IMG/VR virus record: IMGVR_UViG_3300034410_000463 | Location: 1 to 64,000 of that record | Source: a virus | Taxonomy: Duplodnaviria > Caudoviricetes | DNA length: 64,000 bases | Direction: 5' to 3' (one strand) | Part shown: piece after piece, positions 2-17,427 of the stretch | How the letters are laid out: each line of letters opens with the position of its first letter | Numbering within the stretch: the first letter of the stretch is position 1 | Notes under the pieces: model-generated | Databases searched by the model: none | What the model saw: only the letters and a program-made list of their open reading frames with translations | Told to the model about the DNA's origin: nothing | Position numbers and translations under genes: made by a program

Positions 2-3000
2 ATCTGGACTGGTGGAACACAAAGAGTAAATATTGATAATAACTCTGCTGATTTCTCAGTTAATGTCTACGCACCTCGTTACTATGATTCAAATGATAAT
101 AACTATTATGTAGATCCAGCCGAAGATTCAATCATGAATAGTATTATTCTTGATGATTATGTTTATCATAATGGAAATACTAATTCTTACTTTGGTTGGG
201 CTGCAAATAATAACTATAAGATCTTTACAAATGGTGCAGAAAGATTTAACTTAGATAACAACTCTGCTGATTTCTCAGTAAATGTTTATGCACCTCGTTA
301 TTACGATTCTAACGACAATCTATATTACGTAGATCCTGCAACTATATCGTATATGAATAACATTTCATTCGGTAAACCAGGAAATGGTACTAATACTAAA
401 GGTCGATTCTTATCTATTGAAGGTAATGCTGATTCAAGTGGTGAAGGTTCAGCTCGTATATTCTTTGCAGAACACAACTCATCAACTGCCGCACAAGACA
501 AATATGGTATGTCTCTTGCATATCGCGGTGGATCAGCAACAGTTAATAGCGTTACTGGTCAACCAGTTACTCTAACTGGTCTTAGTAATGGTGAGTGGGG
601 ATTACTTGGTTATAATAATTCTATAAATGGCAACTGGGCAATGAAAGGCCCACGTGATAGCAGTTACGTACAAGCAAGAGGTTCATTCAGAGCTCCTATC
701 TTCTACGATTCAAATAACACAGCTTATTACACTGACCAAGCAAGTACGTCAATTCATAATATTCAAAGAGTAAATCAGTTACAAGTAGACGTAGCTGGAA
801 GATATATTGATTCACCATCTGGTAACTACGGTACAATTAAAGTTGAAGGTGATACTGGTGGTTGGGCGGGTTACGCAATCAGAGATGATTGGGTCTTTAT
901 GTCTAATGGTACTGCTAACGCTGGTATCTATAATGATACACGAAACGAATGGTCGTTGCAGGCGCAGGACAACAGCTGGACTCGATTGTATGCAAACGGT
1001 GTACATCAACTGTCTGCACAAAATGGATATGGTTATGCACCAACAAGCATGCGTTCACCAATATTCTATGATCACGATGATACAACTTACTTCGGTGATT
1101 TTGCATCTCGTTCTAAGCTTAAAACTCTTGAGCTTGGTAATCAAGGTAACTTAACAGGTTCTGGTTCATATCCGCTTGGTATCTGGCACAATAACAGATA
1201 TCTTGCAGGAATGAGAAATAGTGGTGCTGGTGCTAACTATCCTTGGTTGGTACATGATAATTATAACTACAATGGTTCTGGTTCTAAAGATGCATTTATT
1301 GTACACTTTAATGGATTGGGCGATAGGTTGTTCTTAGATGAAGCTGGTAATATGCTCATTACTGGTGAGATGTCTGCTTCCAACTATAACCTCAGTGCTG
1401 GTAACGAAAACATATCATTGAATCCAGCATACGGCGTTGGTAAAACTGAACTTAAATTATTCGATGGTGCTAAGTACTGGGAAAAGAGAGCTATTGAAGC
1501 TCTACAAGGTATTGAAAATGCTCCAACTGGTACTACGGCAGAATATGTTAAATCGCCTGATGCTCCTGCTCCATCATCATATGTATTAAGAACTTCATCA
1601 TATAGAACATTCTATTCAGATTATATTGAAGTACAACCTGGCGAAGAAATTTTCGGTGAAATGTATGTTAAACGAATTTCAGGATCAGGTGGATTATTCT
1701 ATTATGGTGTTGAAAGATTCGATAAAGATAAAAAGCCAATTGGTGGTAATACTGGTACTACATACTTTACTGCAAGTGCTCAAAACGTTACAAGTACTTC
1801 TTGGGTCAAGTATACAGGTTATACAACGATACCAACAACACACACGCCTTACGCCGGTTCAGATGGTGGCGGAGTAAGATATGTAAGAATGCGAGTATTA
1901 ATGAACCACTCGGGTGGCGGTGCTCTTCGTGAGTTCACTCCACCGATCTTAATGAGAACAAAGGTACCTTCAAGAATACGTACAGACGAGGCAGTTTACT
2001 CGCCAATCTATTATGATTCAAATGATACTAATTTCTACTTAGATCCAGCCTCAACATCTAAACTCAACACAGTTGATGCAAGTAACTTTAGAGATCGTGA
2101 TAATACCGGTCGTTTTATGAATCCAAACTCTGGTGGTAATGTTCAGGGTTCATGGAACTGGAATAACGGTTCAATCGAAAATCTAAACAACCTTTCATTC
2201 AATGATCCTGGTCCTCAAGAAGGCATACGTTGGAAAGCTGGTAACGAATGGAAGATTTACGAATCACCAAACGACTTAGCCACAAACGGCGGAGGTAACT
2301 TACAGTTTACTTCAGGATCCGGCGCAGGCACAATGCGCGCTCGTATTGATTCTAGTGGCGATCTTTGGGCTGGTCGTTATGCACGTGCTCAACGTTTCTA
2401 TGATACAAATGACGCCGCGTATTATGTAGATCCTAATGGCACATCTATCCAGGCTGCTATTGAATTAAGAACTGGCGGCCTGAAAATGGCTCGAAATTAT
2501 ACCGACAATGCTATTTGGTTTAACAAAGGTACAGATGCAAACCACGTTCTATGGAACCATTATTATGGCGGTCCTGGAGCTCGTGGCGCCGCTGGTTCTG
2601 GTGGCTTTGATGGCATTAAGTGGAATACTTATGCAGGTATCCATTTGCAAGGTGGATTGAGTGGTGCATACAACTTAGCTAAGTTCCATACAACTGGTGC
2701 AGGTAACGGTAACGCTCATTATGTTCAGCTTTACGCAAATAACGTAGAACAACTTGGTACTCGTGGTGGTTATGGTTATGCGCCTAACTCAATGCGTTCG
2801 CCATTGTTCTACGATCAAGACGATACAACTTACTACGGTAATTTTGCTAGCACATCTAGAATGAATGTCATTAATGCAAATATGTACAGCTTAAATGACG
2901 GCTGGGATATTTACGATGATGACTCTGACACATTAACAATTCGTTCAAACAATGGTGACCACGGTGAGATTATATTCCGTGATTCAGGTAGTACAAATTG

Positions 3001-6000
3001 CGGTAGAATTTACTTTGATGATGATAATCACTGGGGCTTTAAATCACCAGATAACGAATGGCAGATTTACTTAGAAAGAAATGCTCGTACCATTCTTTAC
3101 TACAACGGTGGTCAGCAGGCTCGTACACAAAATGGTTACTTCGAAGCAAATAACCAGTTGCGTACTCCAATCTTCTATGATTCAAATGATACTAATTTCT
3201 ACGTAGATCCAAATGCTACTTCAAGATTGCGTGGATTAACAACAGTCGATATAATTACATCTCCAGGAATTACTGGTACCGCAGGTGCATTAAGATCTAG
3301 AGATAATAGAATAGTTGAGCCAAATGAAGATTCTGCAAGCCAAATGAAGTTTGGTTTCACATCTTGGGATAACAATAACACTGCTCCTTGGGCTGATTAC
3401 TTGCACCTAAGATCTTATGGAGATTCTTCGGGTGGTTCAGATAACCTTCTTATGTTTAAGAAGTCTGGTCGTGGAATGCGTTTATGGCAACAATCATTTA
3501 ATTCAGGCACTAGATATACTGCATACTCTAACATCGCAATATATAATGCTAATCCAGGCGGTGGTTCAAATGCATACTTCTACGCAAGTAGATACTATGA
3601 TTCAGATGATACTGGTTATTACTTAGATCCAAATAGTAACTCACGTATTAAGCATCTTAAAGTTGCTGCTACAAGTGCTAATGCAAGATATGACTTTGCT
3701 GCTCTTGAAGTTAGAGAACTTAACCATGCTGGTGCTCAAAGTGCTAATGCTCAAACTGCACCAAGAATTGGTTTCCACTGGGGTGGACGAGTTGCATCGC
3801 AAATTATGCTTGAAACAAATGGTGAGATCCAGATTAGAAACAATCCTGGTACTGGCTATGAAGATTTCAGAGCACAAATTGGTTACTTCCAAGGTGATGT
3901 AAGAGCTCCTCGTTATTACGATTCAAATAACACTACTTATTACGGTGACTTTGCAAGTACATCGATAATGCATACACTCGATGTTCGCTCTGAAGTTTAT
4001 AACGATGGTTGGTTCCGTAACGATACTGGCGGCCGCGGTTTATATAGTACACCATACGCTATGCATTGGATGGCGGTAAATAATACCACTTGGAGAGCAT
4101 ACGGCGGGCAGAGTTCTGTAAAAATAGAAATGAACACCTCTGGTAATAACAGAAGAGGTTCATTCTACGCAAACAACAGCAACGAAGTTGGTATTCTATC
4201 TCAAGACAATGGTTGGGCATTACAGGCTACTAACGGTAAAGTAGATTCGCATCATAACTTCTATGCTCCTATCATGTACGATAGAAATGATAGTAACTAC
4301 TATGTAGATCCTAATAGCACGTCACGAATGAACGTTGTTCGTGCTAATAAATTTACAAATGATGGTTCAGTTTCTTCTGACGATGGCTTTGGTATATATT
4401 GGAGTTCAGATCAATCACCAGCATACGCAATCTTTAGAGAATCTGGTGGTTGGTCTAACCCATACCCAGATATGCGTATTGCGAACCACACTGGTATTAA
4501 GATGGGTGCAAACGCTGGCTACAATGGTATGCGTTTCTACACTGACTATCAAATGGCCGGTCAGGTTATGTCGATTAACAACTCAGCTGATCCACTTGGT
4601 GGCGGTAACGTTTATGTTAATAATAACCTGCAAGCTGGTACATCGTTAAGAGCACCAATCTTCTACGATTCAAATAACACAGCTTATTACTTTAACGGAG
4701 CTAGCAAGTACAGCACAAGATTTGAAGGTGTTAATGCTAGAACTGAAGCATGGCTAGGAATGCCAGGTCATACTCGAAACAGTGGCCAAAACTACAGATC
4801 AAGACCGAACTTTACAGGTGATAGCAACTATTGGACAGGTTCCTTTGGTTGGGGTCGCCAAGATATGAACGTCGTTGGTACTTGGGGTTCGGGCTTCATT
4901 GATTCATGGTCTAATCCAGGCAACCAGCCTTCAGGTACATCTCACTGGGTTGGCATGCAAGCTTCTCACTATCGTAACTCTAATACTTCTGGTTATGGTT
5001 GGCAGTTAGTTGGTGGTCCAATTGAGAACTTAAGACTAAGAAGTTCTTGGTCAGGGTGGAGAGCATGGCGTACAGTTCCAGTACTTGATGTTAACAACGG
5101 CAATGGCGGTTCAATGTATGCTGGTCGTTATTACGATTCAAATAACACTGGTTACTACTGCGATCCATCATCGTTCTCTAACTTTAACACCGGTGTTCGT
5201 GCTACTGAGTTTTATGCTCGTAACTGGTTCCGTAATGATAGTTCTCGTGAAGGTATTTATAACGAAGGAACTGGTGTACATGCTTATTCATGGCAAGCCG
5301 GGTTTTACGCGATTACTGGTAACAACAACTCTGGTTCTATGCATCTACAGCTTAGAGCAGCCAATAACGGTACAATGTGTCGTTGGATGCACGGTGATAG
5401 AACTTGGGCAGGTGATCTTAACGCTGCTGGTCAATGGCAATTACAAACACGTCACCAAGATGGTTACTCACCATCTTTAAGATTCATTGAATCTAGTAAC
5501 GAATCTTGGACTGGTAACATTGGTAACGATGGTGGTAAGATTGAATATCACTCAAACCGTTTCTATATCGAAGCGGGTGGTAACTCAAACCGTATTGTTC
5601 AGTTCCGTCGTAATGGTTCTGATAGATCTTATATTGATAACAACGGCCTATACGTTGGTACAGCTACTTCAGCTCGCTGGGCTGACTTGGCAGAAAGATA
5701 TACTGCTGATGCAATCTATGAGAATGCAACTGTTTTAGGTGTTAACCTTGACGGTGATTCTGAAGCTACTCTATGGCAGCCAGGAATGCCTCTATTAGGT
5801 GTTATCTCTACTAACCCCGCTGTTCAAATGAATGATATGGGAATTGAACCAGGAAGTAACACTAAGAAAGCTAAAATGAATCCATTCATTGCTCTTAAAG
5901 GACGTATTCCAGTCTTAGTAGTTGGCGATGTTAAGAAAGGCCAATGGGTAATTCCAGCTGGTGACGGTAAGGCTAAGGGAGTGGACTACGGTACACCTGG

Positions 6001-6073
6001 TATAAATAGCTATGATATAATTGGTATCGCACTAAGCGATAGTGAAAATGGTGAGGTAGAGGTGAAAGTATAA
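2..6073 (+). CDS. Long modular tail fibre / receptor-binding protein with C-terminal intramolecular chaperone-like domain; 5' truncated
   Basis: Frame is open from base 2 (IWTGGTQRVNIDNNSADFSVNVYAPRYYDS...), so the gene starts upstream of the window. About 13 copies of an (A/S)PxFYDSNxTxYYxDPxSxS motif separate variable Gly/Asn/Ser/Trp/Tyr-rich blocks. The C-terminus (ARWADLAERY...GVISTNP...ALKGRIPVLVVGDVKKGQWV) resembles peptidase G2/IMC autocleaving chaperones. Confidence 0.85.
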   Translation: MWTGGTQRVNIDNNSADFSVNVYAPRYYDSNDNNYYVDPAEDSIMNSIILDDYVYHNGNTNSYFGWAANNNYKIFTNGAERFNLDNNSADFSVNVYAPRYYDSNDNLYYVDPATISYMNNISFGKPGNGTNTKGRFLSIEGNADSSGEGSARIFFAEHNSSTAAQDKYGMSLAYRGGSATVNSVTGQPVTLTGLSNGEWGLLGYNNSINGNWAMKGPRDSSYVQARGSFRAPIFYDSNNTAYYTDQASTSIHNIQRVNQLQVDVAGRYIDSPSGNYGTIKVEGDTGGWAGYAIRDDWVFMSNGTANAGIYNDTRNEWSLQAQDNSWTRLYANGVHQLSAQNGYGYAPTSMRSPIFYDHDDTTYFGDFASRSKLKTLELGNQGNLTGSGSYPLGIWHNNRYLAGMRNSGAGANYPWLVHDNYNYNGSGSKDAFIVHFNGLGDRLFLDEAGNMLITGEMSASNYNLSAGNENISLNPAYGVGKTELKLFDGAKYWEKRAIEALQGIENAPTGTTAEYVKSPDAPAPSSYVLRTSSYRTFYSDYIEVQPGEEIFGEMYVKRISGSGGLFYYGVERFDKDKKPIGGNTGTTYFTASAQNVTSTSWVKYTGYTTIPTTHTPYAGSDGGGVRYVRMRVLMNHSGGGALREFTPPILMRTKVPSRIRTDEAVYSPIYYDSNDTNFYLDPASTSKLNTVDASNFRDRDNTGRFMNPNSGGNVQGSWNWNNGSIENLNNLSFNDPGPQEGIRWKAGNEWKIYESPNDLATNGGGNLQFTSGSGAGTMRARIDSSGDLWAGRYARAQRFYDTNDAAYYVDPNGTSIQAAIELRTGGLKMARNYTDNAIWFNKGTDANHVLWNHYYGGPGARGAAGSGGFDGIKWNTYAGIHLQGGLSGAYNLAKFHTTGAGNGNAHYVQLYANNVEQLGTRGGYGYAPNSMRSPLFYDQDDTTYYGNFASTSRMNVINANMYSLNDGWDIYDDDSDTLTIRSNNGDHGEIIFRDSGSTNCGRIYFDDDNHWGFKSPDNEWQIYLERNARTILYYNGGQQARTQNGYFEANNQLRTPIFYDSNDTNFYVDPNATSRLRGLTTVDIITSPGITGTAGALRSRDNRIVEPNEDSASQMKFGFTSWDNNNTAPWADYLHLRSYGDSSGGSDNLLMFKKSGRGMRLWQQSFNSGTRYTAYSNIAIYNANPGGGSNAYFYASRYYDSDDTGYYLDPNSNSRIKHLKVAATSANARYDFAALEVRELNHAGAQSANAQTAPRIGFHWGGRVASQIMLETNGEIQIRNNPGTGYEDFRAQIGYFQGDVRAPRYYDSNNTTYYGDFASTSIMHTLDVRSEVYNDGWFRNDTGGRGLYSTPYAMHWMAVNNTTWRAYGGQSSVKIEMNTSGNNRRGSFYANNSNEVGILSQDNGWALQATNGKVDSHHNFYAPIMYDRNDSNYYVDPNSTSRMNVVRANKFTNDGSVSSDDGFGIYWSSDQSPAYAIFRESGGWSNPYPDMRIANHTGIKMGANAGYNGMRFYTDYQMAGQVMSINNSADPLGGGNVYVNNNLQAGTSLRAPIFYDSNNTAYYFNGASKYSTRFEGVNARTEAWLGMPGHTRNSGQNYRSRPNFTGDSNYWTGSFGWGRQDMNVVGTWGSGFIDSWSNPGNQPSGTSHWVGMQASHYRNSNTSGYGWQLVGGPIENLRLRSSWSGWRAWRTVPVLDVNNGNGGSMYAGRYYDSNNTGYYCDPSSFSNFNTGVRATEFYARNWFRNDSSREGIYNEGTGVHAYSWQAGFYAITGNNNSGSMHLQLRAANNGTMCRWMHGDRTWAGDLNAAGQWQLQTRHQDGYSPSLRFIESSNESWTGNIGNDGGKIEYHSNRFYIEAGGNSNRIVQFRRNGSDRSYIDNNGLYVGTATSARWADLAERYTADAIYENATVLGVNLDGDSEATLWQPGMPLLGVISTNPAVQMNDMGIEPGSNTKKAKMNPFIALKGRIPVLVVGDVKKGQWVIPAGDGKAKGVDYGTPGINSYDIIGIALSDSENGEVEVKV
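35..315 (+). repeat. Imperfect tandem duplication at the 5' end of the tail fibre (35-96 vs 254-315)
   Basis: gataataactctgctgatttctcagttaatgtctacgcacctcgttactatgattc vs gataacaactctgctgatttctcagtaaatgtttatgcacctcgttattacgattc; same peptide NNSADFSVNVYAPRYYDSND. Confidence 0.85.
698..4690 (+). repeat. Perfect 33-bp direct repeat within the tail fibre (698-730 and 4658-4690)
   Basis: atcttctacgattcaaataacacagcttattac is present twice; a second 27-bp pair (tatgattcaaatgatactaatttctac) lies at 2012-2038 and 3176-3202. Confidence 0.9.
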
Positions 6074-6074
6074 T

Positions 6075-6488
6075 ATGGCAACGTATGCACAATTAAATTC
6101 TAATGCGCAAACACAATGTGGACGGCAGCTCCGTACGTTTGATAAGACTATGGCTTTAACAGTTCAGACTTACACTAGAGGCCAATGGACTGGTGGGTCA
6201 GGATACAGATACCCAAGAACAGGCAGTAACAGTGTAGCTATTTCTAGAAATTATTATCACAGGTTTGAATATGTTAGCGCATCATATTCTGTATATAATG
6301 GTTATCTCGATGGCGGAATATACAGTGGTCAGCTTATACACGACGATGATGTATATAATACTATTTCTAGAGTTGTAAGAAGAACAGTAGATTTAATTGA
6401 AGGCAGAATGGGAACAAGAAACGTTAGTGCTCTTGTATGTCATTCTAGTTGCCACGGTTCTTGTCATTCATCAAGAGGTAGACGCTAA
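6075..6488 (+). CDS. Putative radical-SAM substrate / precursor protein A (C-terminal CHSSCHGSCHSSRGRR)
   Basis: Starts 2 nt after the tail fibre stop; paralogue of the next gene; period-4 Cys-His-x-Ser motif at 6438-6488; lies upstream of six rSAM genes. The CDS is secure; the function is inferred. Confidence 0.7.
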   Translation: MATYAQLNSNAQTQCGRQLRTFDKTMALTVQTYTRGQWTGGSGYRYPRTGSNSVAISRNYYHRFEYVSASYSVYNGYLDGGIYSGQLIHDDDVYNTISRVVRRTVDLIEGRMGTRNVSALVCHSSCHGSCHSSRGRR

Positions 6489-6892
6489 TGGTTATGGAGA
6501 GAAGAGACGTCAACTCGTGGGTTCAAACCTATGGTGGGGCGCAATTAAGAACATTTGATAGAACTGTTACATTTAGAATAACTACATACACGAGAAGTCA
6601 GCGTTTCTTTGGTAATAGCTCGGCAGGTGGTACCAGCTCTGTTACTACTGTAAATAGATACGCTCGATTTGAATATACAGGTGCATCTAATAGCATCTAT
6701 AATAACTATGTAGATTCTGGAATTAACGCCGGTAATGTAATTAATCCACAAGATATTGTGGATACGATGGAAGATTTAGTAAGAAGAACTGTTGACGTAA
6801 TAGAACCAAGAATAACTAACCGCACGGTGAATGCAAGAGTTTGTCACGGAAGTTGCCACCAAAACTGCCATTCATCACGAGGGAGAAGATAA
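6488..6892 (+). CDS. Putative radical-SAM substrate / precursor protein B (C-terminal CHGSCHQNCHSSRGRR)
   Basis: TAATG overlap with A; shares QLRTFDxT, TYTRxQ, RFEY, VRRTVDxIExR and the terminal Cys/His motif (6842-6892). Confidence 0.7.
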   Translation: MVMERRDVNSWVQTYGGAQLRTFDRTVTFRITTYTRSQRFFGNSSAGGTSSVTTVNRYARFEYTGASNSIYNNYVDSGINAGNVINPQDIVDTMEDLVRRTVDVIEPRITNRTVNARVCHGSCHQNCHSSRGRR

Positions 6893-6893
6893 A

Positions 6894-8069
6894 ATGACAA
6901 TGCAAAAATCATACTGTAAACAAATGAGATATTCTGGTCCAGAAAGTCTCGCTCCTAAAGATCAGGATAAGTTTGATGTACTTATTCAGATGGAAGTATT
7001 ATCGGGATGTGAACAGGCATGTTTAGGTTGTTTTGTTGATAAGAATATTGATCCTGGAATGAATCAACAGATTATTGATAGAGCGAAAGAATTAGCAGAT
7101 GGTGTTAAAAGAACTGGTCTTAATTTAAGAGAGTTTGTTATTGGACCAACCGATTTCTTTACGGCATCTAACACAGAATCTGTTTTAAATAACGAAACAG
7201 TTCAAGAAATTATGCGCGAACATACCGGCGCTCGTATTGCTGCTCCTGCAAAGTTTGATGTAGCAACTATGGAAAGGGTACAAGAAATATTTAATATTCT
7301 CGATGATGAAGATAAATTCCGTCGAGAAATGATTATCGAATTTATTATGCCAATCGGTAAAGTAGATCAAATGCTTAATGATATAGTTTATCACCAAGAA
7401 GTAATGCGAAAAGTAAAATTCTTCAAAGAAAATACTCCTAAGCAAATGGATTGGTCTTGGACTTTACAAGCATCTAATGTTGTTGGCAAGAAAATCGATA
7501 AAGAAACATATAATAAAATTATTCAAAAATCTGTTAATGAGTATGAAACAATTGTAGAAATGAATCCAGCTTTCTCAAGAGCAAATTCACAATTAGTACA
7601 AAGAAAGAATTTATTCGGATGGAACGAGTTCTTAGGTAGAGTTATTGATGAAGGTAACTCTAACGAGACAGTAATGTCAATGGCTAATCTGTATTGTAAC
7701 TCAATCAACTTTGTTGGTATTACAATTGTTCCAGGCGAAAACGGACCGACTACACACTTAAACGTAATGTTACATGAGCAAGCATTCTTCTTAAAGAATA
7801 AAAATCTTGATGTTACTGGTTTAACGTTTGAAGAAATCTTAGATAGAAAACACGAGCTTGTTACTAAAGGAATAAATAGATCAAGTAAAGTAAAAGATTG
7901 CAACGGTTGCCAATTCGCAGTAGCATGTGCAAACAGGTTAATATTCGAGGCACAGGAATCATTGAATATTGATGGTTGTGTTCTTAACAAAGATGTATTA
8001 GATCATTATAATCCATTCGACTTTACATGGAATGATGATGCACTTAAAAAATTAGGAGAGGCTTCATGA
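6894..8069 (+). CDS. Atypical radical SAM protein with C-terminal SPASM/twitch-like Cys cluster (paralogue 1)
   Basis: CEQACLGC (CxxxCxxC) and C-terminal CNGCQFAVAC...GC. Start moved from 6831 to ATG 6894, which follows a GGAG RBS and the precursor B stop. Confidence 0.8.
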   Translation: MTMQKSYCKQMRYSGPESLAPKDQDKFDVLIQMEVLSGCEQACLGCFVDKNIDPGMNQQIIDRAKELADGVKRTGLNLREFVIGPTDFFTASNTESVLNNETVQEIMREHTGARIAAPAKFDVATMERVQEIFNILDDEDKFRREMIIEFIMPIGKVDQMLNDIVYHQEVMRKVKFFKENTPKQMDWSWTLQASNVVGKKIDKETYNKIIQKSVNEYETIVEMNPAFSRANSQLVQRKNLFGWNEFLGRVIDEGNSNETVMSMANLYCNSINFVGITIVPGENGPTTHLNVMLHEQAFFLKNKNLDVTGLTFEEILDRKHELVTKGINRSSKVKDCNGCQFAVACANRLIFEAQESLNIDGCVLNKDVLDHYNPFDFTWNDDALKKLGEAS

Positions 8070-9169
8070 TTGGCCAAAGTTATTATTATTTAAATAACAA
8101 AAAATATTTGACAAATATCACTAACTGTGGTACAATTATTAGTGAGGTAAATAATTTCTATCACACTAAAACCCCACGCTCTATTAAAATTGTAGAACCA
8201 TCTGAAGAAGGACATCAACTTTTACCGAACCAACTTTTGGAAGAAGCAGAAGCTATGAGGACTGGTTCAACTGATTTGATTGAGTTTGTTGAATGGGAAG
8301 ATGCAAGTACTATAGAATTTATAGAAAACAGTGATAAGTGCATTGTTGCTTATACAGATGAAGCTGACATGTTGGATATATATGTTAGGTATACTCAAGG
8401 TCTATTAACGGCTTCTGGTTTTTATGCTGGTCACGAAACAAGCGTAGATCAAATCGCAGCAGAGTTTGTTACTAAGGTTTGTGAATCTGATTCTCTATTA
8501 ACAATCATGAATGATTCAACATTATTCCAAGATACTTTAGGATATTGTAATCAAATTTTAGCAGATGCAGATAAACCTGCATTTACTGTTCAATACGAAA
8601 ATGGTAAGAACTTTAGTTACGATTTGTTGTTCTTCTTAAATGATTATTATCCTTGTGATGCAGTAAGGTCTCTTATTATTGAAAAGTTCACAATACATTC
8701 TAGTGAAATTACTAGAGACATTATGGAACAATTTACGGGTATGCGTAGAGATTTAGCTTATATTTGTGCAGTAATTGATTGGATGAACGCAAACGCTACA
8801 GCAGAAAATAGATTAGCCACTGATAAAGCAGATTTTATCAATAGGGTTTTTGTAGAACCGCACACAGCAGAAAATAGAAATTGGACCGTTCCTTTCTATG
8901 CTCTTGCAGATTTATGGAATAAAGTAAAAGATAATGCAGATTTTAAAGCAGCCCACGCCGCGAAATCAGATGGTATTACGAGTTGGGAATATAATGATGA
9001 ATACAACGAACTCAATTATATGATTCCAATGACTAAAAAAATATTAGAACAAACTTGGGATATTAATAACCTATCAGCAGAATTAAAATTACTTGAAGCT
9101 GAAGTACAGTTTTTTGCTAAAAGACAAAATAGGATGCCGTATTTAATACACAAATACAGTTTAGTATAA
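8066..9169 (+). CDS. Hypothetical protein in rSAM cluster
   Basis: 367-aa ORF with ATGA overlap to the upstream rSAM gene; no motif recognised. Confidence 0.75.
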   Translation: MIGQSYYYLNNKKYLTNITNCGTIISEVNNFYHTKTPRSIKIVEPSEEGHQLLPNQLLEEAEAMRTGSTDLIEFVEWEDASTIEFIENSDKCIVAYTDEADMLDIYVRYTQGLLTASGFYAGHETSVDQIAAEFVTKVCESDSLLTIMNDSTLFQDTLGYCNQILADADKPAFTVQYENGKNFSYDLLFFLNDYYPCDAVRSLIIEKFTIHSSEITRDIMEQFTGMRRDLAYICAVIDWMNANATAENRLATDKADFINRVFVEPHTAENRNWTVPFYALADLWNKVKDNADFKAAHAAKSDGITSWEYNDEYNELNYMIPMTKKILEQTWDINNLSAELKLLEAEVQFFAKRQNRMPYLIHKYSLV

Positions 9170-9187: not shown

Positions 9188-10024
9188 ATGAGTAATGAAA
9201 CACACTTAGACGCAGAATTTGAAGTAGTTGACGAAGAAAACAAAGTTATTAGGCACGTAGTTACAGACGTTTCCGAAAAGAAATGCTATGCGCTGCCACT
9301 GTCTCCTCAAGATCTCGTAGCAATTTATAAAGAAAAAGGCGAAGACCCAGATAACAAATTTGTTTTGTGGGTAAACTATGCTGAGTCGAGATTAAAATTA
9401 TCTCCTGCGCATATTATGATATATCTTGCGAATACTAATTTCTACGCAACTTTTTCTGCAGTAGATGAAGATCTACTTGTTGAATATATTAAAACAGACT
9501 TTCTAGTAGATGCTCCTATCCTTGCAAGAATCCTTACAAACATTATCAAAACAAAATATGGCCATGAGTTATCAGAATTAGAAATGCAACTGTATAACCT
9601 ATTTGACGAAAATCAAATCGCTGAGTTTATTGAAAATCAAGGAGAATTGCTCGACGATCTCATTGAAAACATTAAAGGTCTTATTCCTTTTGTTCTTCAA
9701 CACGCGTGGGATAATTTAAGCGATGAAGATAAAAAGACACACTATGACTTAGAAACAACTTTAAATGATATTACTGCAGTCGATAAACCAACAAAGTGTG
9801 GCCCAAATGTTGCTATGCTAGTTCAATGTGTTTGGGATATGTTTCTTGTTATAACTACTTATGAAGGAATAAGCGATAAGTATAATACTAACTTATACAA
9901 TGATAAACCAAAGTATAATGGCGCTGACTTATTCCTCATGCTAAACAATACTAATGTTATTCCAAACGTTCTTAGCTTTTTGCCACCAGGACTGCTCTTA
10001 CCAGATATCGAAAATCCGGCATAA
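9188..10024 (+). CDS. Hypothetical acidic protein in rSAM cluster
   Basis: 278-aa ORF, AAGGTGA RBS-like sequence upstream, tightly packed in the operon. Confidence 0.75.
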   Translation: MSNETHLDAEFEVVDEENKVIRHVVTDVSEKKCYALPLSPQDLVAIYKEKGEDPDNKFVLWVNYAESRLKLSPAHIMIYLANTNFYATFSAVDEDLLVEYIKTDFLVDAPILARILTNIIKTKYGHELSELEMQLYNLFDENQIAEFIENQGELLDDLIENIKGLIPFVLQHAWDNLSDEDKKTHYDLETTLNDITAVDKPTKCGPNVAMLVQCVWDMFLVITTYEGISDKYNTNLYNDKPKYNGADLFLMLNNTNVIPNVLSFLPPGLLLPDIENPA

Positions 10025-10029
10025 GTCTA

Positions 10030-11193
10030 ATGTCCATAATAAAGAATAATCTTTATCATGCGCTCACCACGGAAACAAAAACAAAACCAGTTTCAGCAGT
10101 AAAGTTACAACTAGATGTTCTTGATGGGTGCAAACACAAGTGCCCTGGTTGTTTTGTCCATCGCAGGGGAAACGCAAGCGACGAGCACCAATTTAAAGAT
10201 GCAATAAAATTTGTAGATGATATATCATCTCGTGGTATATTAATAGATGAAATTATTATTGGTCCAACTGATTTCTTATCTTCAGAAAACTTCTATGATG
10301 TAATGCCTCATTTGGTTGATATGATCAATGAGCATTCTCCAATACTTGCTTTTATAACAACTTTAATAGATGATAAGCTTGAGCCGTGGGTTAAATGGCT
10401 TGGTAAAAATATTAACTTAAATACTGAAATTGAAATAGGGATTGCAATTGATCCTTTTAAGTTTCAAAATCAAATTAATTACGCAGAAAACATTAAACGC
10501 AAGCTCAAATATATTAGTGATAATGTAGAACACGACGTCGTATATACATTTTTACTTAATATTAAAGACTATGGTTTAGATTATAAAAATTTGCACGATC
10601 AAGCAGTAAAAGAATTTACTACAACCATAGACTTTATCCCTTCAGTATCTCGATCAGCCAAACCTCATGTTACGCTCGCAACTATTGATAAGTTCAACGA
10701 ATATTTTGATATATTAGCGGCTGGAACACGAATTAATAATATTATGGTCGATCATTCACACGCTGGCATGAACTACACCGTTTTAAATTACAAGAAAGGC
10801 AATTGGTGGTTATCTCCATTCTTATATGAAAACATGGTCGTTGAAGATGATATATTTAAAATAGAATCATTTGATGATGTAGAACCAATCATGTCGTCAC
10901 AATTTAACAGAGCAAAAGGTACTGAGTGCGAAACCTGCCCAATGCTATTTTCCTGTTACAACCGAAAGATTATCCTATTAAGAGATTACCTTGGCGTAGA
11001 TCGCTGTATCGCACCTAAGGAAAATATGATAAATAATCTTTTTAACTACGACTCTGCTGCTAAAGAAATGTATAACTGGTCTGAATATACGCCAGAAGCT
11101 GATAAGAACGGATATCGTAAGAAGTTTACATTAGCTGATGACACCGATCAAGAAGAACTCGATAGAATAAAAGACATCTTTTTCACAAATTAA
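10030..11193 (+). CDS. Atypical radical SAM protein with C-terminal SPASM/twitch-like Cys cluster (paralogue 2)
   Basis: CKHKCPGC motif, IGPTDF shared with the 6894 gene, C-terminal CETCPMLFSC...C. Confidence 0.8.
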   Translation: MSIIKNNLYHALTTETKTKPVSAVKLQLDVLDGCKHKCPGCFVHRRGNASDEHQFKDAIKFVDDISSRGILIDEIIIGPTDFLSSENFYDVMPHLVDMINEHSPILAFITTLIDDKLEPWVKWLGKNINLNTEIEIGIAIDPFKFQNQINYAENIKRKLKYISDNVEHDVVYTFLLNIKDYGLDYKNLHDQAVKEFTTTIDFIPSVSRSAKPHVTLATIDKFNEYFDILAAGTRINNIMVDHSHAGMNYTVLNYKKGNWWLSPFLYENMVVEDDIFKIESFDDVEPIMSSQFNRAKGTECETCPMLFSCYNRKIILLRDYLGVDRCIAPKENMINNLFNYDSAAKEMYNWSEYTPEADKNGYRKKFTLADDTDQEELDRIKDIFFTN

Positions 11194-11248: not shown

Positions 11249-11728
11249 ATGAACTTTTTAGAGTTTGAAGATTTTGTATTGAGCGAACAATGCTACAATA
11301 ACCACGACGTCTCATATATAGACTCAAAGGGTTTGCAGCATTATTTGTTCTACGATTCATTTTGGGAATACCAGCCCAAGATGTTAAGTCTGCTCATGAG
11401 CGACAATACGATTAAAGTCGAGCAGATGGAAAAGCATTATGGATATATAAATCAAACCGCTCATATTTTCTTTAATAAGACAAATGGGCCAACTTTTGAT
11501 GTTCATACAGATCCTGTAAAAGTTATCATAGAATGTTTAGATGGTACTAAGCATATGGAAATCGAAGGAAACGCAGTAGTATTGAAGCCCGGTGAGTCTG
11601 TAATAATACCGCCGAACACAGAGCACAGGGCACTAAATTATAAAAAGGCATTGATGGTGAGTTATGGCATTCGCGACACAGAAACACTTGATGGTTTACG
11701 TAAAAACAACGGAGACGTGCAATCTTAA
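11249..11728 (+). CDS. Cupin/JmjC-like Fe(II)/2OG oxygenase
   Basis: GPTFDVHTD (HxD) plus distal H in VLKPGESVIIPPNTEHRA, a typical cupin facial triad. Confidence 0.7.
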   Translation: MNFLEFEDFVLSEQCYNNHDVSYIDSKGLQHYLFYDSFWEYQPKMLSLLMSDNTIKVEQMEKHYGYINQTAHIFFNKTNGPTFDVHTDPVKVIIECLDGTKHMEIEGNAVVLKPGESVIIPPNTEHRALNYKKALMVSYGIRDTETLDGLRKNNGDVQS

Positions 11729-12698
11729 TTGCTCTCACTGTTTTACGTCAGGCAGCAAAGGTAGAAAAATATATTTTAAACCAAAGGAAACCGCTGATTG
11801 GTGTAATGGTTTAGATTCTGATACGTGCGATAAAGCTATACATTTTGAGTATCACGGTGGTGAACCGATGCTTGCTCCAATGGAAGATATTCTAGAGTTT
11901 TATAATATAACAAAAGAACATTGGGGTGATCGTTGTACTCATGGAATTACTTCCAATTTAGTATTTAAAATAAGAGACGAACATCTAAAATTCTTCGAAG
12001 AAAACATTGACTATATGGGTACTTCTTGGGATCCAAATATAAGATTTTCTAATGAGAAGCAAAGAAAACTTTGGGAAGATAATGTTAAGCTTTTAACTTC
12101 TCGTGGAATGAAAATTAAATGCTTTATTTCTGTATCTAAAGATGTTGTTAAAATGGATCCTCTTGAGATTGCTGATTATATGCATTCATTAGGTATATGG
12201 GATATTGCATACGAGCGTTTAACTCATAATGGTAACGCTACAATTAATCTTGATATATTCCCTCACAATCGAGAGCTCGATGATTTCTGGCTGCGCATGC
12301 ACGCAAGAACAAAAGGCCACCCAGTAAAAAATTCATTCCTAGAATCTGTATACGATAAATTTGATCACGGTGAAACGCGTAACGGAACATTCTGTAGAGA
12401 TTGTGAACAGAAGCTTCATACAATTAATGCCGACGGTACTATTGCTGGTTGTCCTAACTCTGCTCCTACAGATCATTATGGTCATATTAGCGAACCGGTT
12501 CCAAAGGTTCGTGGTTGTTATAAGCGTATGGAAATTATTGCTTCGGAATTACATGTGCGTGATATGAGATGCTATAGCTGTCCTGTATTCGATTTGTGTC
12601 ACTCTGACTGTCACCAATTGCAATGGATGGATGATGTATGTCCTGCTCCTAAGTCGTTAATGCTAAAGTTGGCGGAGGAAAAAAATTGGATCTCATAA
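11664..12698 (+). CDS. Radical SAM/SPASM domain protein
   Basis: CNLNCSHC, HGGEP, SPASM-like CRDC...GCP...CYSCPVFDLCHSDC...CP; the start may be ATG 11691. Confidence 0.9.
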   Translation: MAFATQKHLMVYVKTTETCNLNCSHCFTSGSKGRKIYFKPKETADWCNGLDSDTCDKAIHFEYHGGEPMLAPMEDILEFYNITKEHWGDRCTHGITSNLVFKIRDEHLKFFEENIDYMGTSWDPNIRFSNEKQRKLWEDNVKLLTSRGMKIKCFISVSKDVVKMDPLEIADYMHSLGIWDIAYERLTHNGNATINLDIFPHNRELDDFWLRMHARTKGHPVKNSFLESVYDKFDHGETRNGTFCRDCEQKLHTINADGTIAGCPNSAPTDHYGHISEPVPKVRGCYKRMEIIASELHVRDMRCYSCPVFDLCHSDCHQLQWMDDVCPAPKSLMLKLAEEKNWIS

Positions 12699-13753
12699 TT
12701 AAACCAACCGAAGCCTGCAACTTCAAATGTTCCTTTTGCTCTTCAACAGCGATCGATCCTGATAATGCGGGATTGCTTGATTTAGATTATATTTACAAAT
12801 TCTTAAAAAGATATCCTGATACAGAAACTATTATTGTAAACGGTGGTGATCCTCTAATGATTGATCCAAAATATTATTGGGATTTAATAGATCATTTAGA
12901 TGAGCATGGTTATAAGTCTTCTATTAGTTTTACTTCTAACCTTTGGCCATTTCTTGTAAAACCTGAAAAATGGAAAAAGCTATTTAACCACGAACGTATG
13001 GGTGTATGTACATCATTCCAATATGGTGGCGGTAGATTAAAAGGTGATTTCTCAGAATTTACTGAAGAAGATTTTTGGAAATGCTCAGACGCGATGTTAG
13101 AACACTGTGGATATAGGCCAGATTTTATTGCCGTTATTGTTGAAGAAAACTATGATAACGCAATTAAGAACGTAGAGCTTGCTAAGAAGATGGGTGTTGT
13201 GTGTAAATTAAATTATGCATTTGCATCGGGCGTACAAGACACTACGTTGCAGTTAAGTAAGATATATGAGCTGTACGTTAAAATAGAAGAAATGGGTCTT
13301 GGTGATTGGGAATATAATACTGTTCAAATGAGAAATAGGTTGAATGGTAATGCTACTACTTGTCCGCAAAATAGATTTTGTGATTCAGGTATTCGTGCGT
13401 TTAATCCTGGTGGTGACTATTATTCTTGTGGCTCATTTGCTGATGAAATGGATTATCCTATTAGCTTTAAAGAAGAAGTTGAAGAGCACGGCGAAACGCA
13501 ACTACCTTTAACAATGGATCCTAATATTCAATCAATGAAAATGGCTTGTTATACTTGTCCGATGTTTGAAATATGTAATGGTTGTAAAAAGACTATTCGT
13601 GATCATAAGAGACAAGGAATTGTGGAACAACATTGTAAGCACATGAAAACTTTAGCGCCACGCATATTAAAAATTAATGGCAAAGACGCAAGTTCAGTTA
13701 CGCCTTATGTTGACGAATCAGATCAAAATAAAATATCTGTCGCACAAATATGA
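12686..13753 (+). CDS. Radical SAM/SPASM domain protein
   Basis: IKPTEACNFKCSFC, NGGDP, C-terminal CP...C...SC...CYTCPMFEICNGC...C; TTG start behind GGAGG. Confidence 0.9.
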   Translation: MDLIIKPTEACNFKCSFCSSTAIDPDNAGLLDLDYIYKFLKRYPDTETIIVNGGDPLMIDPKYYWDLIDHLDEHGYKSSISFTSNLWPFLVKPEKWKKLFNHERMGVCTSFQYGGGRLKGDFSEFTEEDFWKCSDAMLEHCGYRPDFIAVIVEENYDNAIKNVELAKKMGVVCKLNYAFASGVQDTTLQLSKIYELYVKIEEMGLGDWEYNTVQMRNRLNGNATTCPQNRFCDSGIRAFNPGGDYYSCGSFADEMDYPISFKEEVEEHGETQLPLTMDPNIQSMKMACYTCPMFEICNGCKKTIRDHKRQGIVEQHCKHMKTLAPRILKINGKDASSVTPYVDESDQNKISVAQI

Positions 13754-14652
13754 ATATATCAATAAACCCTACATATTATTGTAACTTTCGTTGCGACTTT
13801 TGTTATCTAACCGAGGCTCAACTGGCTGATAGGAATAAGATTAGTCCTGAAAAATTAGATGAAGTACTCAGTAAAGTTACAGATCCAATAGACCATATTG
13901 ATTTATATGGTGGAGAAATATCTCTATTAACTGAAGAATATTTTTATGAAATAAAGAAAGTGATACGTAAGTACTATGACGGAAATATTAATATTAACAC
14001 TAATTTTAGTGCTTTGCCAAATTATTTTTATGATGACGATATTACTATTAGTGTGTCGTATGATTTTTCTGCTCGTGAAAAAGAGCAATTTGTTTTAAAT
14101 AACATGATGGCTTCGCAAAAGCCATTGTCTGTTTTAATTCTAGCATCTGAGAAGGTGTTAGCAACCGATGTAGAGTTCATGATCTTTACATTAAATATGT
14201 GTGCACAGGTACAGTCTGTAGAGATTAAACCCTACTCTACGAATCAGGCAAATGCTCACCCAGTGACACATCGAGACTTTGAAGAGCATATTAAGAAATG
14301 GATTGATGCAACAACAGAGAAAAGATTCCAATTTATAAACCAAGAGTTAATAGAAGATGCTCTTGATGGGAAGTACTCTGCGTTCAGCGACGACCACGTA
14401 TATATAACACCGAAGGGAAAGTTTGGCGTACTTGAATTTGATAAAGATGACCGAGAATATTTTAAAGAATATTCAACTTATCAAGAGTATAAACAATGGG
14501 CTGCACTTGAACCTATTAATAATGTATCTGATATATGCAGGGAATGTCCGTATTATGGCGGGTGTTTGACTGAACATTATAGATACGTAAAAGATTTAAA
14601 CAATAGTTGCAACGGATATAGGGGATTATTAGACTGGTATGATGGGAAATGA
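13750..14652 (+). CDS. Radical SAM protein with short C-terminal Cys cluster
   Basis: INPTYYCNFRCDFCY, YGGEI, C-terminal CRECPYYGGC...C. Confidence 0.88.
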   Translation: MNISINPTYYCNFRCDFCYLTEAQLADRNKISPEKLDEVLSKVTDPIDHIDLYGGEISLLTEEYFYEIKKVIRKYYDGNININTNFSALPNYFYDDDITISVSYDFSAREKEQFVLNNMMASQKPLSVLILASEKVLATDVEFMIFTLNMCAQVQSVEIKPYSTNQANAHPVTHRDFEEHIKKWIDATTEKRFQFINQELIEDALDGKYSAFSDDHVYITPKGKFGVLEFDKDDREYFKEYSTYQEYKQWAALEPINNVSDICRECPYYGGCLTEHYRYVKDLNNSCNGYRGLLDWYDGK

Positions 14653-14653
14653 T

Positions 14654-15049
14654 ATGAAAGACTGGAAAGCAAGCCAAATGGCGTTTCACACCGCTAACAA
14701 AAATTACAAGGACGATTTGACCGACGAGAAAATCGTTATTTCTGAAGATATCGTAGATGATGCACTCATGCATTTTGACCGATATATAGAAAACTGGGTT
14801 TATCCCGCAAAGTCATATGTAGTAGCAATATGCTATGCAAAATGGTTAGAACGAGACTTCGGAGAAGATTTCTACGATGTACTCGACGATGAGGAATTAT
14901 TGTTTGGAAATGATCCATACTTTGTTCCTTATTCAGAAGACGAACAAGTATATGATGCTATTTTAAGTGAACTCGATTTTCAGGAAGATCTAGGAATGGT
15001 TCCTGATATTTACGAGTATTATAGAGAGGAAATGTTTTTTGGGAGTTAA
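14654..15049 (+). CDS. Hypothetical acidic protein in rSAM cluster
   Basis: Asp/Glu/Tyr-rich ORF packed between two rSAM genes; likely start ATG 14654. Confidence 0.7.
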   Translation: MKDWKASQMAFHTANKNYKDDLTDEKIVISEDIVDDALMHFDRYIENWVYPAKSYVVAICYAKWLERDFGEDFYDVLDDEELLFGNDPYFVPYSEDEQVYDAILSELDFQEDLGMVPDIYEYYREEMFFGS

Positions 15050-15074
15050 ATTGACAGTAGGAGGCAATTTAATA

Positions 15075-16175
15075 ATGACCGATCGTCAGCAAAATAATGG
15101 GCTGGCGGTTGCGGCTGATCCTGCTGCTGATGAAGTGACTAAAATTATCCTTGAAGATAAACGTCCTGATATCGGTGAGATAGAGTTAACTCTATTTGAA
15201 AACTGTCATTTAAATTGTTTCTTTTGTCACCACGATAAACAATCAACAGTTGGTTTATCAAGAGAAGAAATATTTTCTAAACTCAGTCTCGTTGAAGACC
15301 ATTTAATTAAAATGAAAGGTCGAGCTGAGGTTGTTCAAATCAATATGGTCGGTGGAGAGTTATTCCAAGATAGAATATCTGAATGGGCTTATCCAGTTTA
15401 CTATGATTTCTTAATTGCTATTAAAGAATTATACGACAAATACGAACATAATATTAAAGTAGTATGGGTTACATCGTTTCAGTTTATTAAAAGAGAAGCA
15501 GTACAAAAGCTTATCGACGATTTAAACGCAGCCGATATTCCATCTTATATCATATGTTCATATGACTTTGATGGTAGACCTGTTAAAGGACCATATGGTA
15601 AGAATATAGAATACTTTGCAGATTATATTACATCGATTAATATGGTTGCAACTGTACCTTCTATTGAAAAGTTTATGGAAGACAAGGACGAGTATTTCCA
15701 TTATCTATATGAGAAGTTTGATAATTTCTACTTTGATGATTATATTCCTGATAAAGGCTTTGATCATTTAATACCAAGCGATAGTTTATATCTCGAGTTC
15801 TTAAAATTCGTATATCACAACTATCCTGATATTAATCCTATCAAAGATCTAATATATAAAGATAAGAACCATATGCATTGCTTGTCATTAAATAAGGTTA
15901 CGATCTTTCCAGATAATAGTACATCTAATTGTCGTTGGGATAGATATACTCCTGAAGATTTTAATACACCATTGCATAGAAAAGATAATGCGTCGATGAT
16001 GCAAGCTTATATGAATGAGCATGGTTGTTTATCATGTAGATGGTGGGATAAGTGTGGATTTAGATGTTATACACAATGGGACTGGAAAAATCGTGAACGT
16101 GATCTTCCTGATTGTATTATGAGAATGTGGTTTAATTATATGGAAAAAATAGAAAATGAAAAAAGTAAAGCTTGA
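15075..16175 (+). CDS. Radical SAM protein with C-terminal Cys cluster
   Basis: CHLNCFFC, VGGEL, C-terminal CLSCRWWDKCGFRC...C; AGGAGG RBS supports ATG 15075. Confidence 0.88.
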   Translation: MTDRQQNNGLAVAADPAADEVTKIILEDKRPDIGEIELTLFENCHLNCFFCHHDKQSTVGLSREEIFSKLSLVEDHLIKMKGRAEVVQINMVGGELFQDRISEWAYPVYYDFLIAIKELYDKYEHNIKVVWVTSFQFIKREAVQKLIDDLNAADIPSYIICSYDFDGRPVKGPYGKNIEYFADYITSINMVATVPSIEKFMEDKDEYFHYLYEKFDNFYFDDYIPDKGFDHLIPSDSLYLEFLKFVYHNYPDINPIKDLIYKDKNHMHCLSLNKVTIFPDNSTSNCRWDRYTPEDFNTPLHRKDNASMMQAYMNEHGCLSCRWWDKCGFRCYTQWDWKNRERDLPDCIMRMWFNYMEKIENEKSKA

Positions 16176-16860: not shown

Positions 16861-17427
16861 ATGGAATATAAAGATCTTTGGCCTACTGCGTTTGGCATGG
16901 GTAAATTTGAATGCCCTGAAATGCTAGATTATATTTTGACTAATTATGATTTAAATGATATGTCAAAAATGACTGAAGTTAATGGATTTAATCTATTTGA
17001 CCATGATCACCCAGCAATAGATACGTTTAAAAAGACGTGTATAGATAACTTTGATGAATACTTGCAGCGCAACTTAGGGAGACCTTTATCTGATTGGAGT
17101 GGCCACACCGTGAAGTCTTGGGTATCAGGGCATGGCTCAGGATATAATATGACTATACATAATCACGCAGGCGCTACTTTGTCTGCAGTGTACTATTTAC
17201 TAGCAGAGGAAAAACAATTTGGAGGAGAATGCGTATTCGATGATCCTAGAACAAATGCAAACCGAGGATATGACGAAAAGTTTAAGCCAATGTTTGAAAG
17301 ATTCACACATACGCCAGAAACTGGTGATTATTTAATATTTCCTAGCTTTACATATCATCACGTAAATCCCTATACTTCATCCTTACGGTTTTGTTTGCCT
17401 GTAGATTTGTTTCTAGACGATAACTAA
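16861..17427 (+). CDS. Putative 2OG-Fe(II) oxygenase (phage TIGR02466-like)
   Basis: IHNHAGATLSAVYYL and FPSFTYHHV motifs (HxH...H). Confidence 0.8.
   Translation: MEYKDLWPTAFGMGKFECPEMLDYILTNYDLNDMSKMTEVNGFNLFDHDHPAIDTFKKTCIDNFDEYLQRNLGRPLSDWSGHTVKSWVSGHGSGYNMTIHNHAGATLSAVYYLLAEEKQFGGECVFDDPRTNANRGYDEKFKPMFERFTHTPETGDYLIFPSFTYHHVNPYTSSLRFCLPVDLFLDDN

Follow-up and report, generated by a model that had tools for sequence, protein, structure and literature searches.

Tandem phage proteins with an invariant Cys-His-Ser tail and their linkage to a radical SAM and oxygenase gene module

The DNA considered here, referred to as the window, is a 64,000-nucleotide stretch from a tailed phage (Duplodnaviria; Caudoviricetes), covering positions 1 to 64,000 of the IMG/VR record IMGVR_UViG_3300034410_000463. 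Directly behind a giant fibre-like gene, two adjacent genes encode the proteins A and B, whose C-termini carry the same Cys-His-rich tail, and these are followed by a series of radical S-adenosylmethionine (rSAM) and oxygenase genes. Both open reading frames (ORFs), together with the terminal sequences reported for them in an initial annotation of the window, were confirmed on the + strand. A starts 2 nt 3' of the fibre stop codon, and its TAA overlaps the ATG of B by one base.

The twin proteins and their tail family

The C-termini of A (VCHSSCHGSCHSSRGRR) and B (VCHGSCHQNCHSSRGRR) both have the form (C-H-x-S)x3-R-G-R-R. By BLASTP, the two proteins are identical at 65 of 131 positions (50%, E 1e-41) and are paralogues. 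Outside the tail, Cys and His are nearly absent, as had been noted before: B has neither, and A has only Cys15, His62 and His89. The tail was also correctly recognized as the most conserved part, whereas the description of the bodies as otherwise diverged proved too strong at this moderate degree of divergence. Two further blocks, QLRTFD and RRTVDxIE, are shared and are also invariant among close homologues, so that the tail is the most conserved part of the protein without being the only one.

The family was collected by a word-indexed search (28 close homologues), an exhaustive profile search (74 clusters at E<=1e-3) and a search of IMG/VR (153 relatives). All 92 complete relatives end exactly in the pattern [VYIF]-C-H-x-S-C-H-x-[SN]-C-H-x-S-R-G-R-R; conservation among homologues, by which the initial annotation had proposed to check its motif at protein C-termini, is therefore without exception in this set. 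Within these 92 tails, Cys occurs 92 times at each of its three positions, His 91-92 times, each of the three Arg (R-x-R-R) 92 times and Gly 88 times, while the three Ser columns hold Ser in 88, 68 (with Asn in a further 20) and 86 cases. This conservation is far beyond chance. Body length varies between 58 and 311 aa, and across the family the bodies can be aligned only over the last ~57 residues, which comprise an amphipathic helix, a strand and the tail.

Two types of family member can be distinguished. The short type (120-144 aa), usually encoded as tandem twins, belongs to marine T4-like phages. The long type (179-311 aa, median about 190) is present in one copy in jumbo phages of Ralstonia, Burkholderia, Agrobacterium and Pseudomonas. 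Named examples are ORF068 of the RSL2-like phages of Ralstonia and Burkholderia (186 aa, ending in VCHSSCHTSCHGSRGRR), gp170 of Agrobacterium phage Atu_ph07 (296 aa, ending in FCHSSCHASCHNSRSRR) and a 178-aa protein of Pseudomonas phage pPa_SNUABM_DT01 (ending in ICHTSCHTSCHSARGRR); in Sinorhizobium phage Phosso, only an orthologue of the enzyme rSAM_a (Table 1) was seen. Among 185,579 prokaryote species genomes, only three matches were confirmed (L096, L097 and L098), with B as a probe that may miss distant members; all are Bdellovibrionaceae contigs of metagenome-assembled genomes (MAGs) that carry the whole module, one of them 299 kb long.

Existing resources offer little on these proteins. 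No Pfam or NCBIfam model covers A or B (no NCBIfam match at E<=0.01), and in PHROGs the family matches only phrog_35144, which has no assigned function. A literature search for the motif strings returned nothing relevant, and a blastn search of cultured phages with the DNA of the region gave no match. A match of B to GPW_gp25 was dismissed (E 0.0096; its 16 bits fall short of the cut-off, 27). Two readings of the tail itself were likewise rejected: a glycyl-radical site at R-G-R-R, because Gly is replaced by Ser in 4 of the 92 tails, and a c-type haem motif, in view of the CX3CH spacing, the overlap of the units and the cytoplasmic or virion-borne location of the protein.

The N-terminal part, which the initial annotation had taken for a folded domain, is confidently predicted by AlphaFold2 (AF2) as an alpha/beta body. 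The model of B was built on an 88-sequence alignment and reached a mean predicted local distance difference test score (pLDDT) of 82 and a predicted template modelling score (pTM) of 0.64; a 30-sequence alignment gave a pLDDT of 63. It contains a helix at residues 5-20, a long hairpin at 24-35/51-62 and a second helix at 87-108. Averaged over 10-residue blocks, pLDDT lies mostly at 86-94 in the body, is lower at residues 31-50, and falls to ~75 at 111-120 and ~52 at 121-134. Fold searches with both models gave no clear match, the best VIA Z of 5.6 being at background level and all Foldseek matches in PDB and BFVD having E>0.02. A recurrent weak Foldseek match to the endosialidase intramolecular chaperone 3gw6 (E 0.06-0.35, TM 0.2) was dismissed. 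ESM Atlas yielded no usable match, and profiles of the tail family and of the neighbouring protein unk3 were uninformative against PDB, the PPR matches being short repeat artefacts.

The surrounding gene module

The window derives from a marine T4-like myovirus, and the operon holding A, B and the enzyme genes sits inside its late structural module: genes for a gp15-like sheath stabiliser, the large terminase, the tail sheath, the portal and the major head protein lie 3' of it in the same orientation. The features of the operon are listed in Table 1.

Table 1. Features of the window from the fibre gene to the distal oxygenase.
Feature	Positions	Strand	Remarks
Giant fibre-like structural protein	2..6073	+	>2023 aa, cut at the 5' window end; repeated YYDxxDxxYYxDP motifs
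Fibre C-terminal domain (W-A-D-LAERY ... EVEVKV)	5678..6070	+	weakly resembles the phi29 gp12 autocleaving intramolecular chaperone
T4-type late-promoter-like motif TATAAATA	6001..6008	+	67 nt before A
Protein A, 137 aa	6075..6488	+	folded N-terminal domain (predicted) and tail
Tail of A, CHSSCHGSCHSSRGRR	6438..6485	+	
Protein B, 134 aa	6488..6892	+	
Tail of B, CHGSCHQNCHSSRGRR	6842..6889	+	
rSAMnc1, radical-SAM-like, CxxxCxxC (CEQACLGC)	6906..8069	+	no significant Pfam Radical_SAM match; paralogue of 10030-11193
unk1	8066..9169	+	conserved after the twins in short-type loci
unk2	9188..10024	+	homologue of the gene directly 3' of the tail protein in long-type loci (profile hidden Markov model E 4.7e-13)
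rSAMnc2, radical-SAM-like (CKHKCPGC)	10030..11193	+	1-4 copies in related loci
Cupin / JmjC-like oxygenase	11249..11728	+	always directly upstream of rSAM_a in long-type loci
rSAM_a, SPASM radical SAM enzyme (CNLNCSHC; invariant CX2CX5CX3C...C)	11664..12698	+	
rSAM_b, SPASM radical SAM enzyme	12686..13753	+	
rSAM_c, radical SAM enzyme	13750..14652	+	
unk3, acidic 136-aa protein	14639..15049	+	conserved in both locus types
rSAM_d, radical SAM enzyme (CHLNCFFC)	15039..16175	+	
2-oxoglutarate (2OG)-Fe(II) oxygenase (PF13759)	16861..17427	+	conserved in both locus types

By mapping 87 loci (80 from IMG/VR, together with the window, contigs of its own assembly, RSL2 and three metagenome contigs), of which 50 are short-type and 37 long-type, it was found that the tail gene lies among radical SAM genes in 86, the single exception being cut 2.4 kb after the pair. 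The association with rSAM enzymes anticipated in the initial annotation is thus borne out. Short-type loci have the order fibre, twin, twin, rSAMnc1, unk1, unk2 and one to four copies of rSAMnc2, followed by the cupin, rSAM_a to rSAM_d, unk3 and the oxygenase, with this last set often on the opposite strand. Long-type loci have the order cupin, rSAM_a, tail protein, two unknown genes, rSAM_d, rSAM_b, 2OG oxygenase, rSAM_c and unk3; rSAM_a is the ORF immediately upstream of the tail gene in 34 of the 37, and one extra ORF of ~333 aa stands between them in L011, L068 and L087. Since unk2 and the gene next after the long-type tail protein are homologues, both layouts share what, judged by sequence, is a conserved core of tail protein, unk2, cupin, rSAM_a to rSAM_d, unk3 and 2OG oxygenase.

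The linkage also holds in the reverse direction. In the best 80 of 377 loci of IMG/VR relatives of rSAM_a, mostly twin-type with the pair more than 10 kb away, the tail gene was present wherever its expected position fell on the contig, and its absences are explained by contig ends. Five longer contigs that were searched whole had no tail; they are uninformative, as each stops less than 11 kb downstream of rSAM_a.

The enzymes are related to known maturases only at a distance. rSAM_a carries the two hallmarks of the SPASM superfamily, CxxxCxxC and CX2CX5CX3C...C, and scores 24.5 bits on TIGR04085 against a cut-off of 27; the invariant columns of a 32-sequence alignment include C19, C23, C26, C244, C247, C263, C303, C306, C312, C316 and C326. 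Its nearest named relatives are the peptide or protein maturases PapB, DynA, AmcB, anSME, DarE and HxsB, all far below family cut-offs. In bits against cut-off, the NCBIfam scores of the window's enzymes were 44.7 against 340 for PapB and 20.1 against 855 for not_ScfB (both for rSAM_a), 24.6 against 350 for the CXXX-repeat maturase (TIGR04115), 31.1 against 370 for HxsB, 24.3 and 18.4 against 267.9 for HxsC, 22 against 453 for TIGR03906 and 37.3 against 349 for anSME. As each of these family scores is far below its cut-off, the module is not, on sequence criteria, a member of the SCIFF/PapB, HXS, CXXX-repeat, QhpD or anSME families. The resemblance to the SCIFF ranthipeptide core suggested by the initial annotation consequently does not extend to membership, and A and B match no NCBIfam precursor model, SCIFF included. 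Its second comparison, with His-Xaa-Ser systems, fared better in part: H-x-[SN] units next to basic residues are present in 92 of 92 tails, but the low HxsB and HxsC scores place the enzymes outside the HXS system, and neither HxsA nor HxsD was matched among the cluster proteins tested in NCBIfam. The last tail unit, C-H-x-S-R, departs from the sulfatase motif, with S, G, T or A at position 3 and never Pro. The cupin matches the JmjC and JmjC_2 models weakly, below their cut-offs. The JmjC family comprises protein His and Arg hydroxylases.

Several features vary around the core. Short-type loci L016-L047 and L051-L059 hold arrays of up to five paralogous non-canonical rSAMnc1/2 genes, of which the window has two, and copy number varies by lineage. 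In RSL2-like jumbo phages, two dihydrofolate-reductase-like genes lie in the middle of the module (L007 16650-17799; RSL2 ORF073/074; S13 gp77/78). Downstream of the module, at 20573-21361 of the window, there is a fused cytidylyltransferase-like / mannose-6-phosphate-isomerase cupin gene, and such a gene also stands just 5' of the cupin in the long-type loci L064, L070, L075 and L076, which hints at sugar-nucleotide chemistry near the module.

The window is not a solitary case in its own sample. In its assembly (3.6 Mb, 274 contigs), the arrangement of fibre, twins and enzymes is present on three contigs, namely C116 (the window), C48 (L008) and C131 (L009); the B-type copies on C48 and C131 are 71% and 48% identical to B, and the fibre orthologue on C131 has 2859 aa. 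Given these three contigs, several related phages appear to have been binned together, seemingly into one bacterial MAG. The stretch itself recurs nearly unchanged in seawater metagenomes of at least seven studies from 2013-2024. On the + strand, TATAAATA occurs at 6001, 17432, 21423, 28493, 28516, 34443 and 36230, a short way upstream of A, the gene at 17515 and several late genes, including those for the sheath and the major capsid. Its total of 13 in the window against 8 expected is not significant, and the positions of the sites are suggestive of a late-promoter-like placement. In marine metatranscriptomes, two runs each held one short identical contig (5946-6143 and 6309-6489), which may be DNA carry-over. 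In a viral-fraction library (run X16), one 708-nt contig links the beginning of A with that of B (window 6097-6542), skipping 444 nt and carrying 28 other letters between; it may come from a related phage with the twins collapsed into one gene, the supporting stretches being very short (30 and 23 nt).

Virion association and the role of the tail

Virion proteomics of Agrobacterium phage Atu_ph07 places one family member in the particle. There, gp170 (31.89 kDa) was detected with 8 unique peptides and 35% coverage across gel fragments 1-9, with its peak in fragment 1, in the range of proteins of ~90-130 kDa; the neighbouring fibre gp176 (66.07 kDa, 14 peptides, peak in fragment 4) was also present, and the rSAM enzymes gp165, gp168 and gp171 and the cupin gp172 were absent from the virion list (PMC6102473 Table S5). 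Both identities are secure, since translation of the two genes gives calculated masses of exactly 31.89 and 66.07 kDa. For the Atu_ph07 orthologue, the family member is thus a virion structural protein, which supports the structural role that the initial annotation had allowed for the N-terminal part. The peak of other ~30-kDa proteins of this gel lies in fragment 8, proteins of ~90-137 kDa being found in fragments 1-2 (PMC6102473 Table S5), so that after 95 C in sodium dodecyl sulfate gp170 runs mostly as a much larger species. Its only three Cys all lie in the tail, and the migration fits a tail-mediated covalent or very stable assembly.

A further indication comes from the twins themselves. 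At 32 distinct twin loci, the two tails of one phage agree at 80% of five variable tail positions, against 40% for tails from different phages, regardless of whether orthologues or paralogues are compared. This agreement holds despite up to 18 nucleotide differences in 51 and 12 synonymous codon changes. The bodies, in contrast, are slightly more alike between orthologues (0.51-0.53) than between paralogues (0.44), which indicates that the duplication is old. Such a pattern suggests one shared, lineage-specific reader of both tails, either an enzyme or a binding site, as the best explanation.

It is considered probable, if by no means assured, that the family represents a fibre-associated virion protein with a variable body and an invariant tail, and that the rSAM and oxygenase enzymes encoded with it act on this tail, which is retained on the protein. 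A and B would be expressed along with the giant fibre as part of the late structural operon. Residues 1 to ~112, a compact alpha/beta body without a recognised fold, would dock the protein on the fibre or virion. A and B would probably assemble into a hetero-oligomer, as relatives with one copy would be homo-oligomeric. The last 16 residues, (C-H-x-S)x3-R-G-R-R-COOH, would then be a flexible tail acted upon by the four SPASM or twitch rSAM enzymes (rSAM_a to rSAM_d), the JmjC-like cupin and the 2OG oxygenase. The likeliest chemistry would be Cys-centred thioether and/or His-Ser carbon-carbon cross-links, together with hydroxylation of His or Arg, and the modified tail may form a rigid, possibly metal-binding or covalently cross-linking knot that is kept on the virion protein and not released.

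The fibre is another candidate target of these enzymes. Its last ~130 residues follow the pattern W-[AS]-D-LAE-[KR]-Y ... IGIALxDG..VEVK[VI], and upstream of short-type pairs the protein that carries them has 258-3327 aa. By profile, this domain lies upstream of the tail genes at 48 of 50 short-type and 23 of 37 long-type loci (71 of 87 in all), in most of the latter directly before the cupin. Against PDB, the profile matched 6qz9 (E 0.011) and 3gqh (E 0.039) weakly, with the W-S-D-FAEYFE autocleavage region of phi29 gp12 aligned; an assignment to Peptidase_S74 is not supported, as the fibre end has no Pfam match. The enzymes might modify the YYDxxD fibre, another virion protein or a small molecule, with the tail protein in an accessory role as a carrier of Fe-S or metal, a scaffold or a chaperone of assembly. 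The linkage of the fibre with this conserved domain to the module is nearly as tight as that of the tail protein, about 10 YYDxxD repeats in the window fibre could be rSAM targets, and rSAM-rich T4-like marine phages also carry Fe-S assembly genes (PMC5332604). Nevertheless, this alternative is improbable: long-type fibres have no YYD repeats, 14 of the 37 long-type loci retain both tail protein and enzymes although such a fibre is missing within 10 kb, and a tail protein that is well covered in the Atu_ph07 virion, while the enzymes are not listed there, fits a catalytic helper poorly.

A different fate of the tail was implied by the initial annotation, which had read the terminal 16 residues as a core peptide behind a leader. 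Under a true RiPP (ribosomally made, post-translationally modified peptide) pathway, the tail would be cut off after modification as a free peptide or cofactor, such as a toxin, a signal or a metallophore, and the body would be a long leader. Its terminal position, a Cys spacing of four as in SCIFF and CXXX-repeat peptides, and the SPASM enzymes agree with such a scheme, and long leaders of the NHLP or Nif11 type are known. The classical form appears to fit poorly, however, because most RiPPs show the opposite of an invariant core on a variable body, and the module lacks a conserved protease or exporter family. With the body itself present in the Atu_ph07 virion and the operon placed among late structural genes, release of the tail seems improbable.

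More weight is carried by metal binding, although as a full explanation this too is unlikely. Both Cys and His are well-known ligands of metals, and Fe or Zn is often bound at the tips of phage fibres, among them T4 gp37, gp12 and spike tips, where it is held through His. The tail could be a Cys/His site, occupied by Zn, Fe, Cu or an Fe-S cluster, that holds together an oligomeric adaptor or fibre-tip protein, with the rSAM enzymes acting elsewhere. Three Cys-His pairs spaced by four residues, the virion association in Atu_ph07 and the position of the gene behind a fibre gene are all in keeping with it. It leaves unexplained the near-invariant Ser at the fourth position, which is not a typical metal ligand, the invariant terminal R-G-R-R and the constant placement beside rSAM_a and the cupin in unrelated phage lineages; furthermore, no other gene with a peptide-like candidate substrate was found in the conserved core. 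A milder form, in which metal binding is the end function of the tail with or without modification, is compatible with the favoured reading of an enzymatically modified, virion-borne tail.

Several observations weigh against that favoured reading. Modification of the tail is inferred for every family member, which leaves room for a metal site, and metal binding alone could explain part of the conservation, given the nature of the ligands and the frequency of Fe and Zn at fibre tips. rSAM_a lies 5 kb from A and B in the window, and more than 10 kb away on the other strand in many twin loci. The high-mass migration of gp170 could reflect disulfides, as no reductant is named for the loading buffer, or material that aggregated at the gel top, and the Atu_ph07 virions were purified with polyethylene glycol only. 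The agreement of tails within a phage could stem from old gene conversion, and the compared loci are phylogenetically related. A complex prediction of rSAM_a with residues 78-134 of B scored 0.02, a value that weighs neither for nor against binding.

In its strongest form, the argument would be that several unrelated phage lineages maintain a dedicated multi-enzyme rSAM/oxygenase pathway whose sole job is to install covalent cross-links in the (C-H-x-S)x3-RGRR tail of a fibre-associated virion protein. This is put forward tentatively, as a possibility that falls short of probable. If true, the particle would gain either a covalently locked tip or adaptor complex or a new metal or redox centre. 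This would be the first case of a RiPP-like maturation machinery in the service of virion assembly, and a counterpart, on the side of the phage, to the rSAM-matured HxS effector of the host.

In bacteria, peptides and a few proteins are known to be matured by radical SAM enzymes; to our knowledge, no phage structural protein needs radical SAM chemistry. The module costs the phage roughly 8-11 kb, and despite the oxygen sensitivity of its enzymes it occurs in phages of seawater metagenomes; it is also present in jumbo phages of plant pathogens that are studied for biocontrol. Modification of the tail would establish a new substrate class, a new cross-link chemistry on the Cys-His-x-Ser unit and a post-translational layer in fibre assembly or host recognition. 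Up to 12 rSAM genes have been recorded in some marine T4-like genomes and were read as Fe-S-related metabolism (PMC5332604); a modified tail would explain this abundance of up to a dozen genes, left unexplained earlier (PMC5332604). Jumbo-phage papers, for their part, list cupin, rSAM and 2OG genes without an assigned function. The question is directly testable, since cultured hosts exist for Atu_ph07, RSL2/FLC6/S13 and pPa_SNUABM_DT01, and in gp170 of Atu_ph07 the tail lies in a tryptic peptide ending in ...CHSSCHASCHNSR.

Comparison with known systems

Among fibre-related systems, the phi29 gp12 pre-neck appendage autochaperone (Peptidase_G2-type) resembles the upstream fibre and not A or B: the last ~130 fibre residues align weakly with the C-terminal fragment of gp12 (W-[AS]-D-LAE-Y against W-S-D-FAEYFE) at the E values given above and with no Pfam match. 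T-even gp38-type adhesins or chaperones and the His-metal sites of T4 gp37 and gp12 are comparable to A and B in another respect, namely a small protein encoded right after a long fibre gene, with a variable body and possible Cys/His metal binding; no similarity of sequence or fold to them was found. We know of no fibre accessory that comes with a set of radical SAM genes.

Among maturation systems, SCIFF or ranthipeptides and CXXX-repeat peptides, with the SPASM maturases ScfB, PapB and TIGR04115, share with the tail a Cys at every fourth residue and SPASM enzymes encoded nearby. Their precursors are short and use Asp, Thr or Asn as acceptors, whereas here the protein has 58-311 aa, one orthologue is virion-borne, and His and Ser would be the partners. 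QhpC/QhpD, the former being the gamma subunit of quinohemoprotein amine dehydrogenase, which a SPASM rSAM enzyme cross-links, and the anaerobic sulfatase maturase (anSME) offer examples in which an rSAM/SPASM enzyme modifies Cys of a folded protein that is kept in the final complex, and the C-x-x-x-R spacing of the sulfatase motif recurs in C-H-x-S-R, the last unit of the tail. The scores for these families are generic only, position 3 of that unit lacks the Pro of the sulfatase motif, and the tail has no Asp or Glu acceptors.

By analogy, the closest functional precedent is the HXS antiphage system, in which the two rSAM enzymes HxsB and HxsC, with HxsD, mature HxsA, a protein of ~214 aa that carries HxS repeats and in which a mass shift maps to SHRSS (PMC13128918). 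That system differs in serving bacterial defence, in periplasmic export and in a peptidoglycan-binding domain; the HxsA repeats have no Cys and are not C-terminal, and no HxsD-like protein was found here. The likeness lies in a protein-sized substrate, several His-x-Ser units beside basic residues, a requirement for more than one rSAM enzyme, and a product that, in HXS, stays in the functional protein. Altogether, the module is real, widespread and previously undescribed, and it would bring the rSAM-matured type of protein into the setting of the virion.

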